58,776 bases of DNA, from assembly GCA_028700185.1 (NCBI GenBank), contig JAQVTF010000002.1, positions 1-58,776 on the forward strand. Direction: 5' to 3'. Below the pieces are notes generated by a model. That model did no database searches. It saw only the letters and a program-made list of their open reading frames with translations, and was not told where the DNA came from. Position numbers and translations under genes: made by a program. Of the stretch, positions 11,826-20,196 are shown in pieces. Numbering within the stretch: the stretch's first letter is position 1; each line of letters starts with the position of its first letter. The DNA is from Desulfobacteraceae bacterium. Lineage in GTDB: Bacteria; Desulfobacterota; Desulfobacteria; Desulfobacterales; UBA2174.

Positions 11826-13289
11826 TTACAGCAGGCGTCCGCCGCTTTCCGGCCAACGCCGCACCAAGTTGCGGGAAGCGTCGGTGATGGTGATGGTAAT
11901 GCCGTGATCGCCGTCCAGGCGATGCGTTGCGCAGGAAATTCATGGGTCGTAGGCGCGCACCGCCATTTCGATCCGGTTGAGAATCCCCTCGTCCACCTTG
12001 CCGTCATGGATCAACTCCCGGGCCGCCTGGTTGACGCTCATGTTGATGGGCCCGAGGTTGTGGGTAGTCCCCACGATCATGTTGGCATGGCGGATCAATC
12101 CGTTTTCGTCGGTGGTGTAGTCGTGAATCAGGGTGCCCCGCGGCGCCTCGACACAGCCGATGCCGCGGCCGGCTCTCGGTTCCACCTTGGCCCGGACGTT
12201 GGGATTGGTGATTTCCGGGTCTTCCAGGATCTCGATGGCCCGTTCGCAGGCGTAGACCTCCTCGATGAGCCGGGCCCAGTGATAGAGCAAGGTCGCCTGG
12301 GCCGGACGGCCGAAGTGCTGGCGGAAGGCCTCCAGCTCGGCCTGGGCCCGGGGCGTGGAAATGTGGTCGGCCACGTTGATGCGTGCCAACGTGTTGGACC
12401 GGTATACACCCCGGGGTTGGTCCAGATCCAGGGAGAAACCCTCGTCCCAGCACCGCGCATAGGGAAACTTGCCGTAGGAATAGGGCAGCACCTGTTCGCC
12501 GATGTAGTCGGTGTAGTCGTTGGGGGAGAATTCGGTGATGCTGCCGTCCGGCTTCATCAGGCGCAGGTTGCCGTCGTAGAGGTTCAACGCCCCGTCGTCG
12601 TCCACCGTGCCGATGAAACCGGTGTTGATGACGCCGATGGTCGTGATGGCGTCCATGTACTTGGGGAAAATCTCCTTCTTGGCAAAATCCATCGTGAACA
12701 GGGCGAAATCCAGGATCTGGCGCATCCGGTCGAGGATTTCCAGGCGCTGATCCTCGCGCATCGGCTTGGAAAAGCCGCCTGGCACCCCCGCAATGGGATG
12801 GATCGCCTTGTTGGAGAACTGGTCCAAGGTCATCTTGGCCAGGTGACGCATCTTGACCACCCGCTGCGCCAACTCCGGATTGGCCTGAACGATGCCGATG
12901 ATGTTGCGCACCGCGTAATCGGTATCCGGACCGATGACGAAATCGGCCGCCGCCAGGAAAAAGAAATGCAGCAGCTTGTCTTCAGCGTGGGAAATGGTCT
13001 GCATCAACTCGCGCAACTTGCTGCCTGTCGGCGTCGGGGTGACGCCGAAGCAGCCGTCCACGGCCTTGTTGGCGGCCAGATGATGCATCCAGGGACAGAT
13101 GCCGCAGATGCGGCTCACGATGCGCGGCAGTTCTTCGGCGGGTTTGCCTTCCACGAATTTTTCGAACCCGCGCATGGACAGGATGTTGACCCGCGCCTGG
13201 CTCACGTTGCCCGTATCGTCTAGTTCGATACCGATGGAAGCGTGCCCCTCGATGCGGGTGATGGGCTGAATGTTGATAACCCGGGACAT
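11826..13289 (-). CDS. mvhA: Mvh/Vhu-type cytoplasmic [NiFeSe] hydrogenase large subunit. The in-frame TGA at 11940-11942 is read as selenocysteine.
   Basis: N-terminal RIEGH and RICGICP motifs. The ORF track ends at ...VRAYDP + TGA. The same frame continues ISCATH RLDGDHGITITITDASRNLVRRWPESGGRLL to TAA at 11826-11828, restoring the DP[C/U]xxCxxH nickel-ligand motif plus a cleavable tail. Confidence 0.85.
11907..11923 (-). promoter_or_regulatory. candidate bacterial SECIS hairpin for the mvhA UGA
   Basis: The mRNA reads AUCGCC-UGGAC-GGCGAU (6-bp stem, 5-nt loop) and begins 16 nt after UGA. It has the same loop and spacing as the mvhD hairpin. Confidence 0.55.
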
Positions 13290-13293
13290 GGTT

Positions 13294-14235
13294 TTACGAC
13301 TCCTTTCTTTTACCCGCCGGCCGCAACAGGCCGTGGGCGCCGGCGAAACGTAGCAGCGACACGCTCTCGGGCAGGCTTGCTAGATCGATTCCGTTGGAAG
13401 CCAGGGCGTTGAGCATGTCCAGGCGCGGGTTGCCGTTCTGGCGTACCGGCCCGTAGCAGCCCCGGCAGGGAACCCGGGCCGCGATGCACCGCGGCGGTCC
13501 GTCGATCCCGCCGCAGCCGGCCCGGGTGACCGGTCCCATGCACAAGAACCCCTGTTCCAGCAGGCAGCGCATCTCGTCCAGAGGAGCGTCGGGATCGGCG
13601 TACACCGGTGCTTCGAGGAAACGCTTCAGCTTCTTGAGTTGCCCCTTTCCCTCGCGTCGGGTCGGGCAGACGTCGCAGACGCTCTTTCCCGGCAGCACGG
13701 GGGTTTTTCCTTCCACCAACGCCGTCAGGGCGGAAAAGATGTGGTCCGGGTGGGGCGGACAGCCGGGCAGATAGATGTCCACGGCGATCTTCTCGTCCAA
13801 CGCGTAGCAGCGGTCGAGCAGGGGTGGAACGATGTTCATATCCGGATGACGCTCCGGCGCGTCGGTGGTCTCGGTGGTGTAGTAGCGGTGGAGAATCTCT
13901 TCCGGGCTGTAGGCGTTGGACAGGGCTGGAATCCCGCCGTGGGTGGCACAGGTGCCCAGGGCGATGATCGTCCGACAGCGTTTGCGCATCTCCAGGGCCA
14001 CTTCCAGGTGCTCCGCGTTACGAATGCCCCCACTGATCAACCCCACATCGGCCTCGGGAATTGCGAGATGAACACCGTCGCCGAGCTGGCCGAAGTACTT
14101 GTGATCCATCAGGGCCGGGATGTGCACGAAATCGGCCACCTTGAGCACCTCCAGCAGCCGCTCTCCCATGTCCAGGATCGAAATCTCGCAGCCGGCACAG
14201 GAGTTGAGCCATTCACTTGCCACTTTTACCGTCAT
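13294..14235 (-). CDS. mvhG: Mvh-type [NiFe] hydrogenase small subunit (no Tat signal, cytoplasmic)
   Basis: MTVKVASEWLNSCAGCEISILD..., later GTCATHGGIP and multiple Cys clusters. There is no twin-arginine leader. Confidence 0.9.
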   Translation of the reverse strand: MTVKVASEWLNSCAGCEISILDMGERLLEVLKVADFVHIPALMDHKYFGQLGDGVHLAIPEADVGLISGGIRNAEHLEVALEMRKRCRTIIALGTCATHGGIPALSNAYSPEEILHRYYTTETTDAPERHPDMNIVPPLLDRCYALDEKIAVDIYLPGCPPHPDHIFSALTALVEGKTPVLPGKSVCDVCPTRREGKGQLKKLKRFLEAPVYADPDAPLDEMRCLLEQGFLCMGPVTRAGCGGIDGPPRCIAARVPCRGCYGPVRQNGNPRLDMLNALASNGIDLASLPESVSLLRFAGAHGLLRPAGKRKES

Positions 14236-14250
14236 CTCTGATTCCTCCGT

Positions 14251-15369
14251 CTAAATCTTCACCCTCACCGAGGGGGCGCCCAACTCCTGCCGGAAGGCCG
14301 CGGCACTTTCCTTCTTGCGCCGCGACCATTCGTGCACCTTTTCCAGGGCGGCACTGGCGTAGCGGTGATCGTCCTGGTAGCGAAAAGTCTCCAGCGCCCC
14401 TGCACTGCGGGCATCGGAGAACACCGCCCGGCCAAGGGGAGTGCGCATGATGGTGGTGGTCCAACCCTCCCGGGCGCCGATGCCGCCGAAGGCGATATCG
14501 GCGAATTCCGCGGCATAGTCCGGGCAGAAACGGCAGGCGTAGCGGCGGATCGCCGCCAGGTCCGCCAACGGAATCGTTTTGATTTCCCCGTTGTTCAGGT
14601 GGAGCATCAAGGCTTCCTTGATATTGATCTTGCGCACCTGGTCCCAGTCGAAGCCATGGGCCTCGGCCAGCGCTTGGCGCTGTTTTTCTCCAAAAACGAA
14701 GTTGCCCGAACAAAACAGACCGAAGCAGAACTGGATCGCGTCCGAGGGAACCAGCCCTAACGTCTGCATACGGCGCACCGATTTGATCTGACAGGGAGTG
14801 CCCACCAGCGCCACCCGGTGCAGCCCCTTTTTGACCATGGGGTCGAATTCTTCGATGGAAGAATAGGTCATGTACTGGTCGCTGAAGCTTTTCATCCCGT
14901 GGCTGGTGTCGAAAAAAAAGCCGGCCGATTCGAGGATGTCCTCGCGGGTGGTGGCCAGGAAGGGGCGTCGCTGAAACGGCCCCACCTGTTGGGCCACGAT
15001 GGCCCCGTCGATCCGTCCCCGGTCGAAGAGATGCAGCAACAGGGCCGTGACCACACCGCCGTCGGTGGCCCGCTGGCGCACGGTCTCATCCATGGCCCGG
15101 GCCACGGTGGATTCCATGATCCGCCCCATGGGTTCACTCCAGGCGGCCCGCCGTCGGGTCTCTTCCTCCAGTTCGTCCACTTCCGGACAGATGGCATGGC
15201 ACAACCCGCACTCGATGCACTTTTCGATATCCGCATAGCGCGGTTTACCGTCTTCATCCAGTTCCAGCGCCCCGTAGTTGACGGCCGTGCAGAAGGTCAC
15301 GCAGCCTCCGCAGCGGTGGCAGAGCCCTGGTTTCTGGACTTCCTGGATCAGGTCGAAAAAGGTTTTCAT
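14251..15369 (-). CDS. FrhB/FdhB-family flavo-iron-sulfur protein (coenzyme F420 hydrogenase/dehydrogenase beta-like) with an N-terminal 2x[4Fe-4S] ferredoxin
   Basis: CHRCGGCVTFC...CIECGLCHAICP, then DGGVVTALL...VGTPCQIKSVR...CRFCPDYAAEFADIAFGG. Confidence 0.8.
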   Translation of the reverse strand: MKTFFDLIQEVQKPGLCHRCGGCVTFCTAVNYGALELDEDGKPRYADIEKCIECGLCHAICPEVDELEEETRRRAAWSEPMGRIMESTVARAMDETVRQRATDGGVVTALLLHLFDRGRIDGAIVAQQVGPFQRRPFLATTREDILESAGFFFDTSHGMKSFSDQYMTYSSIEEFDPMVKKGLHRVALVGTPCQIKSVRRMQTLGLVPSDAIQFCFGLFCSGNFVFGEKQRQALAEAHGFDWDQVRKINIKEALMLHLNNGEIKTIPLADLAAIRRYACRFCPDYAAEFADIAFGGIGAREGWTTTIMRTPLGRAVFSDARSAGALETFRYQDDHRYASAALEKVHEWSRRKKESAAAFRQELGAPSVRVKI

Positions 15370-15393: not shown

Positions 15394-15834
15394 TCAGGCG
15401 GCGCTGTCCACCGGCGCTTCCGGCACCGCCACGGGGTTGGGGCCCAGAGACCGGATCTTCTCGGTAAAACGGGTCACCACCTCGGCAAAGCGCGGGGCTT
15501 CGGCGGAGGATACCCACTCGATGGCGAACCGCTCTGGCTCGATCCCCAAATCCTCGAGCACGATATGAATGGCGGCGGTCCGGTTCAGGGCCTTGGCATT
15601 ACCGTCCAGGTAATGGCATTCACCGAGGTGTCAACCCATGACGATGACACCGTCGGCACCCTTCTGCAGCGCCCCCACCACCAGGTCTGGGTGCACCATC
15701 CCCGAACACATCACCCGCACCGCACGCATGTTGGGCGGGTACTGAAGGCGCGACACGCCGGCCAGGTCGCCGCCGGCATAGGCGCACCAGTTGCACAGAA
15801 AGCCGATGATGACAGGCTCAAAATTGTCGGCCAT
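15394..15834 (-). CDS. mvhD: MvhD-type hydrogenase delta subunit. The in-frame TGA at 15631-15633 is read as selenocysteine.
   Basis: GFLCNWCAYAGGDLAGVSRLQYPPNMRAVRVMCSG...GADGVIVMG + TGA. The same frame continues HLGECHYLDGNAKA...ERFAIEWVSSAEAPRFAE... to TGA at 15394-15396. Cys-type homologs carry G-C-H-x-G-D/E-C-H-Y here. Confidence 0.85.
15597..15615 (-). promoter_or_regulatory. candidate bacterial SECIS hairpin for the mvhD UGA
   Basis: The mRNA reads CAUUACC-UGGAC-GGUAAUG (7-bp stem, 5-nt loop) and begins 15 nt after UGA. Confidence 0.55.
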
Positions 15835-15863
15835 GATGAGATTCCTTTCTAAGAATGGGGAAA

Positions 15864-16352
15864 AATGACTTAAGTGACTAAAAACTGAGTGACTAAAATT
15901 ACGAGTGACTAAAGTGACTAAAAACTGAGTGACTAAAATTACGAGTGACTAAAGTGACTAAAGTGGTGGTGTCGCTGCGCTCCGGTTTTTATATAACTGG
16001 CAGAATTCATTCACTTTAGCTCACTTTAGTCACTTTAGTTCACTTTAGTTCACTTGACACTCTAGATCACTTTGGCTTTTTTAGTGACTAAAATTACGAG
16101 TGCCTAAAGTGGTGGTGTCGCTGCGCTCCGGTTTTTATATAACTGGCAGAATTCATTCACTTTAGCTCACTTTAGTTCACTTTAGTCACTTTAGTTCACT
16201 TGACACTCTAGATCACTTTGGCTTTTTAGTGACTAAAATTACGAGTGACTAAAGTGACTAAAGTGGTGGTGTCGCTGCGCTCCGGTTTTTATATAACTGG
16301 CAGAATTCATTCACTTTAGCTCACTTTAGTCACTTTAGTTCACTTTAGTCAC
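15864..16352. repeat. AT-rich, ORF-free array of about three composite palindromic units (146-154 nt) built from phased GTGACTAAA / TCACTTTAG 9-mers around a roughly 45-nt core
   Basis: The core AAGTGGTGGTGTCGCTGCGCTCCGGTTTTTATATAACTGGCAGAATTCAT occurs at 15961, 16107 and 16261. 15928-16049 is identical to 16228-16349 (122 nt). There is an exact 40-nt tandem duplication at 15881-15920 / 15921-15960. Seven exact GTGACTAAA copies lie in 15874-15962. The array fills the hdrA-mvhD intercistronic gap. Confidence 0.9.
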
Positions 16353-16359
16353 TTTTTTT

Positions 16360-19300
16360 TCATTTCACCAACGCCGCCTCCACCTGGGCCTCGAGCTGGT
16401 CCAGGGTGAATCCGTGTACCAGGACGCCTCCCTTGGGACAGGTGGCCTCGCAGAGTCCGCATCCCTTGCACAGGGCCGGATCGGTCTTGATGCGTTTGTG
16501 CACGGTGCCGTTTTCGGCCTGGAATTCTTCCAGGGAGATGGCCCGGTACGGGCACACATCCACGCACAGGGCACAGCCGTCGCATTTGTCGGTGACGAAA
16601 CTCTTGATGGCATCGAGCTGCATTTCGTCCCGGTCCAGCAGAATCGCGGCACGGGCTGCCGCCGCCTGGGCCTGGGCGATACTCTCGTCCACCGGCTTGG
16701 GGTAGTTGCACAGCCCCGCCACGAACAGGCCGTCCACGGACATGTCCACCGGTCGCAGCTTGGGATGGGCCTCGTTGAGAAACCCGTCCTCGTTCTGGCC
16801 GCACTTGTACAGCTCCACCAGGGACCGATTCGGGTAGGGTTCAATGGCCGACGCCAGCACGAGGTAGTCGACGTCAAACTCGAGGGGCATCTGGAGAATC
16901 GGGTCGAAGGCCGTTACCGTCACCCCGTCGCTGCCCGGGGCGACCCCGGGCTTGCGATCCACATCGTAGCGGATGAAAATGACCCCCAGGGCCCGGGCCT
17001 GCTGGTAGAGCAGCTCACGCTTGCCGTAGGTACGAATGTCCCGGTACATCACGTAGACCGGCATCTCCGGCTGGAGGGTCTTGAGGCGGATGGCGCTTTT
17101 CATGGTGTGGGTGCAGCAGATGCGGCTGCAGTAGGGCCGCTTCGGCTCGCGGGAGCCCACACACTGGATGAAGGCCACCCCGGCGGCCTGCCGGATCTCG
17201 TCCGCATGCCCCTCGACGAAAGCGTCGAACTCCAGGTGGGTCATCACCCGGTCGCTCTCCCCGTAGCCGTACGCCTCGGGCACCGATTCCCGGGCGCCCA
17301 CCGCCACCACGGCAGCCCCGTAGCTCACGGCACGGGTTTCTCCGTCGACTTCGATGCGACTGACAAAATTGCCCACCGATCCCACCGCGGTCAAGAGTCG
17401 GGCGTTCTTCATCACCTGGACCCCCGGGTGGGCTTCCACCTGACCGATCATGGCTTCAAGCATGGGCCGAATCGGTTCCCCCGTCTCGGTTTCGCCCAAA
17501 CGCCAGGCGTTGCCCCCGAGGCGCTGGCCTTTTTCCAGCAGCACGGTGGGAATATCCCGGTCAGCCAGGGTCAGGGCCGCCGTCATGCCGGCGATGCCAC
17601 CGCCGATGACCAGGGCCTTGCGGGTCACCGGTACCCGCAGCCGGCCCAAGGGCGCCATGCGGGACGCCTTGGCCACGGCCATGCGCACCTGGACCTTGGC
17701 CTTTTCGGTGGCCTGTTCGGGCATTTTCTGGTGCACCCAGGAATTCTGGTTGCGGATGTTGGCCATCTCGATGAGGTACGGGTTGAGGCCGGCCTCCTGA
17801 AGCGTCTCCTGGAACAAGGGTTCATGGGTGCGCGGGGTACAGGCGGCCACCACAATCCGATTGAGACCGTGTTCGGCGATCTTCTTGGCGATGAGATCCT
17901 GGGTGTCGGCCGAACAGGTGAACAGGTTGTTGTCCACAAACACCACGTTGGGCAAAGTGGCGGCATAGGCGGCCACCGCCTTCACGTCCACCACGCCGGC
18001 GATGTTGATGCCGCAGGAACAGACAAAAACACCGATGCGCGGGGTCTCTCCGGCCACGTCCCGTTCGTCCGGATAGGTCTTCTCGTGTGTCAGGGCCCCC
18101 CGGGCGGGCAGCATGAGGTGAGCCGCCTCGGCGGCGGCGGTGGAGGCTTCGGCCACCGAGCGAGGGATCGCCTTGGGCCCCTGGAAGGCCCCGGTGACAA
18201 AAACCCCGGGACGGGTGCTGCACACCGGATGGAAATAATCGGTCTTGGCGAAACCGTAGGCGTCGAGCTCGATGCCGAAGGCCGCCGCCAACTGCCGGGC
18301 GTCCGCCGGCGCCTCCAACCCCACGGACAGGACCGTCATGTCGAAGGTTTCCACCTGCGTCTGCCCATCTTCGGTGGTGTACCGCAGGCTGACACCGTGC
18401 CCGTCGGGGCCCGGGTCGATGGAGTGGGGCCGAGCCCGGATAAACTGCACCCCCTTGGCCCGAGCGTCTTCGTAGAAGCGTTCGAATTCTTTGCCCGGAC
18501 TGCGGATGTCCATGTAAAAAATGCTCTGTTGGACCTCGTCGCCGGTGAGGTGCTCGGCGGTGACCAGGGACTGCTTGATGGCATACATGCAGCAAACGCT
18601 GGAACAGTAAGCATTGGTGCAACGGTTGGTGCTGCGGGAGCCCACGCACTGGATCCAGGCGATACGGCGGGGTTCCCGGTTGTCCGAGGGGCGCTTGAGG
18701 TGCCCCATGCAGGGCCCTCCGGCCGAGAGCAGTCGTTCGTACTCCAGACTGGTAACCACATCGGGGATCTTCTTGTAGCCGTAGAAATCATACGGTGACG
18801 GGTCGAACGGCTGGAAACCGGGGGCCAGAATCACCGCCCCCACTTGGAGATCGAAAAACTTTTCCTCGTCGTCGAAACGGATGGCGCCGGTGGGACAGAA
18901 CTTCTCGCAGGCCCGGCATTTGCCCCGGGTCAGATAGATGCAGTGCTCGGGATCGATGGCATACTTGAGCGGCACCGACTGACCGTACTTGATGTAGGCC
19001 GCCTTGCGCTTGTTGAGCCCCATGTTGAAGGCGTCATCGACCCGTTTGGGACATTTTTCCGCGCACAGCCCGCAGGCGATGCACTTTTCCATGTCGATGT
19101 AACGGGGGTGTTGCTTGACGGTGACGGTGAAGTTGCCCGCCTCGCCCTTGACATCGACCACTTCCGAAAGGGTAAGCAAATTGACGTTGAGATGCCGGCC
19201 GACCTCGACCAGTTTCGGAGAGATGATTCACATGGCGCAATCGTTGGTGGGATAAGTCTTGTCCAACTGGGCCATGACGCCGCCGATGCCGGCGGTCTTT

Positions 19301-19407
19301 TCCACCATGTGAACGTAATAGCCGGACTCGGCCAGGTCGAGGGTCGCCTGGATGGCGGCGATGCCCCCGCCGACCACCATTGCCGCTCCAATGGGAGATT
19401 GAGACAT
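16360..19407 (-). CDS. hdrA: tandem (double-module) HdrA-family flavo-iron-sulfur protein. The in-frame TGA at 19228-19230 is read as selenocysteine.
   Basis: ATG at 19407 with an AAGAGG RBS. The sequence reads [20 protein letters not shown]...[12 protein letters not shown] + TGA + [12 protein letters not shown]..., joining the 16360-19179 ORF in frame. Cys homologs carry FPTxDC(S/A)xCI at this point. It has ferredoxin CxxCxxCxxxCP motifs and a second FAD module ([15 protein letters not shown]). Confidence 0.85.
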
Positions 19408-20196
19408 GGAAACCTCTTTTTTGTTTTCAGAAAAAGTTAAAGGGGTTGCTGCCTGACCGGGCACCGTGTGGTGCCCGGACGCCATCGCGGCCCGCCAAGC
19501 GTCCTCTTCGATCCCCGCATCCTGGCAAAACCGCTCCAGTTCCTCCTCCTGGATCAGATACTTCTTGCCGATGGTGGGCCGGGCGGGCAATTTGCCGGTT
19601 TTAATCCAGTTGGTGACGGTGTTGCGGTGGACCCCCAATTGGGCGGCGAGAGTGCCGACCCGAAACATAAGGGCGTTTCCACCCCCGCCGCCGGCTACGG
19701 TACCAGACGGGGGCACAAGGATATCCATGATCCACTGACACATGGGCCTCACGGCAGCCTGCACCGAAGCGGAAAGGCCCGGATGGACCTCGGATGGGAT
19801 ATCGGCCGGATTGACCACCAGAATGCGCACGTCGATGTCGGTGTGCTGTCGCAGCTCCTTGAGCATATTGGTGGTGGGAAACTGGTGCAGCGAATAATCG
19901 ACGATCTTGGCCGGCTGGATTTCGTCGAGCCCGATTTCGCGGATTTCGCCGGGGGAAGCGTCCTTGAGGGCCATGGCGTCCACGATGATGATCTGCCGCG
20001 GATATTTTCGCGACAGGAGCATATCGAAAAGAATGTCGCGCACCGCGGTGCCCACATCCAGGTAGGCCACGTCGGACGGTAGTCGATACTCGGCTTCAAG
20101 CAGTCGAATCACTTCCGCCCCGAACCCGTCGTCACCGAACAGAGGGTTGCCGCAGCCAAACACCAGCCGGGGTTTTTCGTAAATGCGCTTGAGCAT
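19408..20196 (-). CDS. hydrogenase maturation endopeptidase (HycI/HybD/FrhD-like) fused to a C-terminal excisionase/MerR-type HTH. No stop codon precedes hdrA.
   Basis: [16 protein letters not shown] and SLHQF protease motifs, a GGGGG linker, then [47 protein letters not shown]. The frame runs uninterrupted into hdrA, and the first stop is the TGA at 19228. The end given here is simply the base before the hdrA ATG. Confidence 0.7.

Follow-up and report, generated by a model that had tools for sequence, protein, structure and literature searches.

A predicted selenocysteine codon at position 68 of mvhD in a Desulfobacteraceae Hdr/Mvh hydrogenase operon

We analysed a stretch of 58,776 nucleotides (nt) of contig JAQVTF010000002.1 from a Desulfobacteraceae bacterium (assembly GCA_028700185.1), hereafter called the window, in which the minus strand carries a hydrogenase operon whose mvhD gene contains an in-frame UGA (Table 1). 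The gene starts at ATG 15834, with AAAGGAA just 5′ of it, and its first 67 codons form an open reading frame (ORF; 15631–15834) that ends in ...GADGVIVMG and is followed by TGA at 15631–15633. Past this triplet, the frame reads HLGECHYLDGNAK... and runs for 78 codons up to the true stop, TGA at 15394–15396, which gives a product of 67 + 1 + 78 = 146 residues. An earlier interpretation of this locus, made from the sequence alone (the sequence-only reading), had joined the 67-residue ORF to the 78 downstream codons in the same way, and its coordinates and frame proved to be exact.

With Cys substituted at the UGA, the readthrough product matched the Pfam family PF02662 (FlpD/MvhD) at 177.5 bits over the whole profile (positions 1–123 of 123; cut-off 22.3 bits). 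Its top match among solved structures was MvhD of Methanothermococcus thermolithotrophicus (PDB 5ODC chain D, E = 5.9e-46), in agreement with the earlier claim of an MvhD of normal length. The 78 residues 3′ of the UGA alone scored 67.3 bits (profile positions 61–123); MvhD similarity, whose lack in these codons had been named as the outcome that would count against readthrough, is therefore present. The family has a five-Cys pattern (CxxC, MCSG, G-C-H and x-C-H-Y), and in the window protein C14, C17, C43 and C73 are in place and position 68 is the UGA. The neighbourhood is also that of PF02662, with hdrA upstream and the frhB-like gene, mvhG and mvhA downstream, all on one strand, and this hydrogenase-cluster arrangement is kept in related loci.

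When the window protein was aligned with its closest database relatives, the UGA fell on an otherwise invariant Cys column, and G67, H69, G71, C73, H74 and Y75 were invariant as well, indicating that the motif G-C-H-x-G-(D/E)-C-H-Y, whose first Cys had been taken to be replaced by the UGA, is real. The three closest homologues in the database (80–85% identity) read Trp at this column. When their DNA was translated with genetic code 11, however, each showed an in-frame stop exactly at the UGA column, and the stop was TGA (Table 1); the Trp is found there because the contigs had been called with genetic code 4, in which UGA is Trp.

We then scanned for mvhD homologues with one genome per species, which returned 80 loci (83 loci were fetched in all), and counted the codon at this column in the 79 genes in which the motif was found among the window and the fetched loci. 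The column held TGA in 71 of the 79 genes and TGT in the remaining eight, which answers the question, raised with the sequence-only reading, of whether orthologues carry Cys or Sec (selenocysteine) there. The carriers of TGA were mostly labelled Desulfobacterota and those of Cys mostly Planctomycetota. Cultured organisms were among the TGA carriers, including Desulfosarcina variabilis, Desulfatibacillum alkenivorans DSM 16219, Desulfamplus magnetovallimortis and Salidesulfovibrio brasiliensis, and the nearest match to the window gene, from Desulfobacteraceae bacterium UBA2174 (94% identity), was also of the TGA type. The UGA thus aligns with Cys in homologues, as is expected of a selenoprotein gene, and the coding frame is conserved on both sides of it; a UGA at an invariant Cys column, kept together with its downstream frame in 71 genes, is what the comparison supports directly. 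The N-terminal CNWC motif is Cys-Cys in the window and in 69 of 70 TGA-type mvhD genes of the related loci, the exception (L046) having C/G.

A hairpin inside the coding sequence follows the UGA directly. Numbered from the U of UGA (nt 1), the mRNA forms a stem of 7 bp (CAUUACC/GGUAAUG, nt 19–25 and 31–37) closed by the apical loop UGGAC (nt 26–30), with two additional outer pairs at nt 16–17 and 39–40. Criteria ascribed to Zhang and Gladyshev (2005) for a bacterial selenocysteine insertion sequence (SECIS) are said to ask for a stem-loop directly after the UGA with a G-containing apical loop about 16–37 nt from it, and the mvhD hairpin has this form. To obtain a background, we defined a strict geometry, in which a stem of at least 6 bp ends at nt 25, a loop of 3–6 nt begins at nt 26 and GG lies within the first three bases of the loop. 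It was found at 0.27% of all window positions and after 8 of the 1672 TGA triplets, three of which are the in-frame UGAs of the operon, in mvhD, in hdrA and in the gene of the hydrogenase large subunit. These three are alike, with the stem at nt 19/20–25, the loop starting at nt 26 and GG at nt 27–28; this common geometry is a direct observation. Together with the conservation of the column in 71 genes, it makes an mvhD with an in-frame UGA far exceed chance. The five other sites with a strict hairpin after TGA (20799+, 30688+, 21856−, 11815− and 3137−) were rejected as Sec codons, as frame arithmetic on the ORF coordinates placed none of them in frame with an adjacent ORF.

A scan of synonymous sites in 70 distinct TGA-type mvhD genes covered the 64 degenerate codon columns at which the amino acid is conserved. 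Synonymous variation was zero at only five of them, codons 74, 75, 76, 78 and 79 (CAT TAC CTG. GGT AAT), which form the arms of the hairpin. The codons just 5′ of the hairpin do vary (His69 is CAC or CAT, Gly71 uses four codons and Cys73 is TGT or TGC), and in the eight Cys-type genes the arm codons vary synonymously too, with both or all synonyms in use. The RNA-level constraint is therefore strictly local, and its location fits that expected of a bacterial SECIS.

Two further in-frame UGAs lie in the same operon. In hdrA, the UGA at 19228–19230 (minus strand) sits in TNDCAM-U-IISPK, the canonical Sec position of HdrA, with a downstream hairpin at nt 19–36 that has an AGGU loop, and it is conserved in 60 related loci. 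The UGA of the large-subunit gene, at 11940–11942 (minus strand), sits in DP-U-ISCATH, that is, in the DP-U-xxC-xxH motif that is the signature of [NiFeSe] hydrogenases, and the tail of the protein matches the NCBIfam VhuU model. The putative SECIS hairpin of this gene (nt 20–36, AUCGCC-UGGAC-GGCGAU) carries the same UGGAY loop at the same distance as that of mvhD, and the loop was found at nt 26 in 57 of 58 distinct sequences of the gene; its stem shows a compensatory change from AUCGCC/GGCGAU to ACCGCC/GGCGGU (U-A to C-G). All three UGAs are kept in 39 related loci besides the window, and in the three Cys-type mvhD loci in which a large subunit was found, the large subunit is of the Cys type too. 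The operon, consisting of a hycI-like protease, a helix-turn-helix (HTH) domain, hdrA(Sec), mvhD(Sec), the frhB-like gene, mvhG and mvhA(Sec), is conserved. Judged from these codons, all three redox subunits that have Sec in Methanococcus very probably have Sec here as well. The prediction of a selenoprotein MvhD in the sequence-only reading is thus supported in each of its elements; what it had missed are the SECIS-like hairpin, the two additional Sec codons of the operon, in hdrA and the large-subunit gene, and the existing documentation of the feature itself.

Table 1. Features of the mvhD locus in the window, and the stop positions in three orthologues
Feature	Position	Strand	Remarks
[NiFeSe] hydrogenase large subunit (MvhA/VhuA with fused VhuU-like C-terminus)	11826..13289	−	TAA stop 11826–11828
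mvhG/vhuG-type hydrogenase small subunit	13294..14235	−	Oxidored_q6; VhuG 219 bits
FrhB/FdhB-like flavo-iron-sulfur protein, between mvhD and mvhG	14251..15369	−	Fer4 + FrhB_FdhB_N + FrhB_FdhB_C
mvhD (FlpD/MvhD, [2Fe-2S] electron-transfer subunit)	15394..15834	−	146 codons including the in-frame UGA
SECIS-like hairpin inside the mvhD coding sequence	15594..15618	−	fold, geometry, synonymous-site constraint
in-frame UGA, predicted Sec68 of mvhD	15631..15633	−	replaces the invariant Cys of G-C-H-x-G-x-C-H-Y
AT-rich repetitive spacer between hdrA and mvhD	15835..16359	−	525 nt; 146-nt hairpin-forming unit in about 2.8 tandem copies
hdrA-like, type II	16360..19407	−	about 1015 codons from ATG 19407; two FAD/TrxR-like domains and ferredoxin domains
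HycI/FrhD-type hydrogenase maturation protease domain, at the head of the cluster	19699..20196	−	same open frame as HTH_17 and hdrA
Trp-called orthologues P0001, P0002 and P0004	stop at L001:580–582, L002:643–645 and L003:365–367		fetched DNA

Selenoproteins of this family have been described before, as the sequence-only reading had pointed out. A list of experimentally verified selenoprotein families includes MvhD/VhuD (PF02662), giving for it a CxxU motif and, in the archaeal representative, two Sec residues (PMC13188914). Among bacteria, four Sec-containing mvhD genes (mvhD1, mvhD2, mvhD3 and mvhD5) and a Sec-containing hdrA1-mvhA2DG cluster were reported in 2009 for Desulfobacterium autotrophicum HRM2 (PMC2702500), which resembles the window in having a bacterial UGA-containing mvhD beside a Sec-containing hdrA and a cytoplasmic Sec-containing Mvh hydrogenase. 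In Desulfococcus multivorans, mvhD was reported in 2016 among five genes with a UGA upstream of a SECIS, as the split ORF pair dmul_C28840/50 (PMC5109826). The papers give no Sec position; the genomes of Desulfobacterium, Desulfococcus and Desulfosarcina in our homologue scan carry TGA at the column of the window, and from these related genomes the published D. autotrophicum and D. multivorans genes would have their Sec at the same column. Unlike these Desulfobacteraceae Sec-mvhD clusters, the window also has an inserted frhB-like gene and, between hdrA and mvhD, an amplified hairpin repeat.

The archaeal VhuD proteins of Methanococcus voltae, M. maripaludis and M. jannaschii share with the window protein the family, the role of a [2Fe-2S] adaptor between the Vhu hydrogenase and HdrA, and the position of hdrA upstream, and in both systems HdrA and the large subunit (its VhuU part) are selenoproteins, by prediction in the window. 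Archaeal VhuD has two Sec residues 50 codons apart, and a single SECIS in the 3′ untranslated region serves both UGAs (PMC4989117). In the structure of M. maripaludis VhuD (PDB 9SFI chain K), the sequence reads ...FVCYQ-X-GYGAADLAG... and ...GADAVFVAG-X-KPNECAF..., and the positions of the two X residues, X14 and X65, agree with this published distance. We aligned the chain by reading its C-terminus through a segment search and then building a chimeric query: X14 aligned with C17 of the window protein and X65 with the UGA at position 68. The non-standard residue of the window thus occupies the position of the second one in archaeal VhuD, and Sec68 would correspond to its second Sec. Archaeal VhuD has two Sec residues (CxxU14 and U65), whereas the window protein has Cys at the first position (CNWC) and a UGA at the second only; its hairpin lies directly downstream within the ORF, which is the bacterial type of arrangement. 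The two systems also differ in that VhuA and VhuU are fused in the window and HdrA is of type II, with two flavin domains. On the NCBIfam model of the archaeal VhuD equivalog (NF045873), the window protein scored 129.3 bits, below the cut-off of 215.

Another Sec-containing adaptor homologous to MvhD, with a [2Fe-2S] cluster, is BamF of the class II benzoyl-CoA reductase of Geobacter metallireducens, which has Sec19 (bioRxiv 10.64898/2026.04.10.717634). It resembles the window protein in being a Sec adaptor of a deltaproteobacterium, and its partner is BamE, a Sec-containing fused double HdrA-like protein (bioRxiv 10.64898/2026.04.10.717634). From its residue number, Sec19 would lie at the N-terminal CxxU, the site of a cysteine described near the cluster, and not at the G-U-H column. 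BamF also exceeds the window protein by more than 100 residues, and the module to which it connects is HydABC-like and no hydrogenase. A BamF-type protein would be a long two-domain adaptor encoded beside bamE/bamGHI, with Sec at CxxU; the window protein, with Cys in its CNWC motif, 146 residues and hydrogenase genes as neighbours, has none of these features. When metagenomes were scanned for F-C-C-N-W-TGA, three bacterial MvhD-family genes (L106, L123 and L187) turned up that have CCNW-UGA, with the UGA at the CxxU site, and Cys at column 68 (GACLxGECHY), but no archaeal double-Sec VhuD; a large protein search with Methanothermococcus MvhD returned Cys isoforms (VhcD/MvhD) only and no Sec-type VhuD. 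Cys-type MvhD proteins (5ODC chain D and those of Planctomycetota/Sedimentisphaerales) share the fold family and all conserved motifs with the window protein, the Planctomycetota homologues at about 65–70% identity. They differ in having Cys (TGT) at the column, and the hairpin is not constrained in them. By its sequence and neighbours, the window protein is a bacterial hydrogenase-linked MvhD that would work like VhuD, and neither an archaeal VhuD equivalog nor a BamF-type protein. The MvhD family as a whole appears to use two Sec positions in bacteria, of which the clade of the window is predicted to use only the second.

Taking these results together, we consider it highly probable (about 0.9) that the UGA at 15631–15633 is a selenocysteine codon and that the gene encodes a full-length MvhD of 146 residues with Sec, not Cys, at position 68. 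In the mechanism that we propose, which is the usual one of bacteria, the in-ORF hairpin would act as the SECIS and bring SelB carrying Sec-tRNA(Sec) to the ribosome arriving at the UGA, and the resulting MvhD would have selenium at one of the five conserved cysteine positions around its [2Fe-2S] cluster. It would serve as a small adaptor that takes electrons from the Mvh/Vhu-type [NiFeSe] hydrogenase, of group 3c, and hands them to HdrA at its bifurcating flavin. The dependence on SelB and tRNA(Sec), the actual incorporation of selenium and the chemical role of residue 68 are what we infer from these observations.

Several results weigh against this interpretation. Pfam scans, which covered the long ORFs of the 58.8-kb window only, found no selA, selB or selD, and a tRNA scan of the window found no tRNA(Sec); the related isolates D. 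autotrophicum and D. multivorans do have sel genes and tRNA-Sec (PMC2702500, PMC5109826). The folding energy of the 60 nt after each of the three UGAs was no better than that of shuffled sequence (z = −0.4 to +0.1), and this free-energy test was replaced by the background of positional geometry and the synonymous-site scan. Rfam gave no SECIS family, either in the whole window at the gathering threshold or in the operon at E ≤ 1, and its sole matches were weak, resembling microRNA precursors and caused by the hairpins of the hdrA-mvhD spacer. The mvhD stem shows no covariation, because it never varies, so the case for it is one of geometry and synonymous-site constraint. Finally, it is the literature, and not the coordinates, that leads us to read the X residues of 9SFI chain K as Sec.

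The UGA might instead mainly terminate translation, so that the cell makes an N-terminal fragment of 67 residues and perhaps also a C-terminal one from a start of its own; the full-length protein would then be minor or selenium-dependent, and the UGA would act chiefly as a selenium-sensing switch on Mvh/Hdr assembly. Decoding of Sec is known to be generally inefficient and to depend on selenium, and a GTG-initiated ORF of 55 residues lies at 15394–15561. In addition, the Vhu/HdrA(Sec) isoforms of M. maripaludis go down under selenium depletion (PMC11097638). However, the 67-residue fragment would be without position 68, without C73 of the five invariant Cys positions and without half the fold, and the GTG ORF starts only after the CHY motif. 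The downstream 78 codons are moreover under strong protein-level conservation in the 71 genes, and a Cys-type mvhD paralogue was not found in the window. We therefore regard predominant termination as improbable. Somewhat less probable still is a readthrough without selenium, in which a near-cognate tRNA(Trp), a tRNA(Cys) or Cys-tRNA(Sec) would place Trp or Cys at position 68. Low-level reading of UGA by tRNA(Trp) is established for bacteria and Trp does appear at the column in public gene calls, but these calls are the artefacts of code 4 described above, and Trp would be no substitute for an invariant Cys that adjoins or ligates the [2Fe-2S] cluster. A conserved hairpin at the distance of a SECIS has no role in simple readthrough, and the same operon has the diagnostic DP-U-xxC motif of [NiFeSe] hydrogenases.

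A single stop within the frame is what a pseudogene usually shows, and the use of code 4 on orthologues by some metagenome pipelines could suggest that the organism reads UGA as sense (code 4 or 25). Yet 71 independent genes have TGA at exactly this column and an unbroken frame before and after it, and this conservation excludes a pseudogene or a sequencing or assembly error. A reassigned code is excluded because TGA is an ordinary stop in the window, where it closes 31 of the 48 long ORFs at the expected protein ends, including those of GcpE and RelA/SpoT, with the domain matches reaching the end of the ORF; the window, at 62% G+C, is also a piece of a Desulfobacterota-like chromosome and does not belong to a code-4 or code-25 lineage. 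Together, these possibilities are effectively refuted.

The remaining features of the operon were examined as well. The spacer between hdrA and mvhD consists of units that match one another at 91%; within each there are four to five CTAAAGTGA repeats in direct orientation, about 45 nt of core sequence and TCACTTTAG repeats in inverted orientation, and the fold of one unit is a long hairpin (−48 kcal/mol, z = −6.6). The CTAAAGTGA 9-mer occurs in 15 exact copies in the window, where 0.11 would be expected, and all of them lie in the spacer. In UBA2174, the closest relative, there is a single unit (L004:5822–5970), and in the other fetched loci none. The spacer belongs to the operon transcript and not to the recoding device; it may be an attenuator, an element for processing or stability within the operon, or an insertion resembling a repetitive extragenic palindrome (REP) or a miniature inverted-repeat transposable element (MITE). 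Downstream of mvhD, only some of the related operons contain the frhB-like gene, all of them at loci in which the mvhD and mvhA UGAs are about 3.7–4.0 kb apart. This spacing falls into two classes among the related loci, about 2.5–2.7 kb and about 3.7–4.0 kb, with the window (3703 nt) in the second, and we attribute the two classes to the absence or presence of the frhB-like gene.

At the head of the cluster, no stop was found between 19231 and 20196 on the minus strand, so that the protease (ATG 20196), HTH_17 (at about 19668) and hdrA (ATG 19407) form one frame up to the Sec-UGA of hdrA. Upstream of the hdrA UGA, an open frame of 148–165 residues that starts with the HTH_17 motif is present in at least 20 related loci; this open frame suggests an HTH-HdrA fusion. 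The protease was found inside the open HTH-hdrA frame only in the window and at L004.

Sec-containing mvhD is already known, and the window gene is one more member of a documented selenoprotein clade. The Sec68 reading is thus an annotation correction for a known selenoprotein; its novelty is low and it opens no new question. Its practical consequence lies in the gene calls: standard gene callers split mvhD and leave a 67-residue stub, a wrong code inserts Trp, and hdrA and the hydrogenase large subunit suffer the same damage. Metagenome entries called with code 4 hide selenoproteins in this way and put false Trp residues into protein databases. Once the three predicted Sec codons are recognized, the operon reads as a complete electron-bifurcating Hdr/Mvh [NiFeSe] hydrogenase module, which would mark the organism as selenium-dependent for its hydrogen metabolism.

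For the family, we tentatively propose that the two alternative Sec positions of MvhD are specific to lineage and partner, with position 68 alone used in hydrogenase-linked Desulfobacterota, position 17 alone in BamF-like adaptors and both in Methanococcales. An equally speculative idea, which would make sense of the Sec pattern, is that a redox-active chalcogen pair (S-Se or Se-Se), made up of residues 17 and 68, lies next to the [2Fe-2S] cluster. If this were true, the pair would convert one-electron transfer into two-electron transfer to the bifurcating flavin, residue 68 would be no simple cluster ligand, and the 71 genes of the window's clade, in which the putative SECIS never varies, would offer a natural set of cases in which to ask why selenium makes up one half of the pair. 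Position-specific use of Sec could help to frame the question of what Sec does in MvhD and VhuD.

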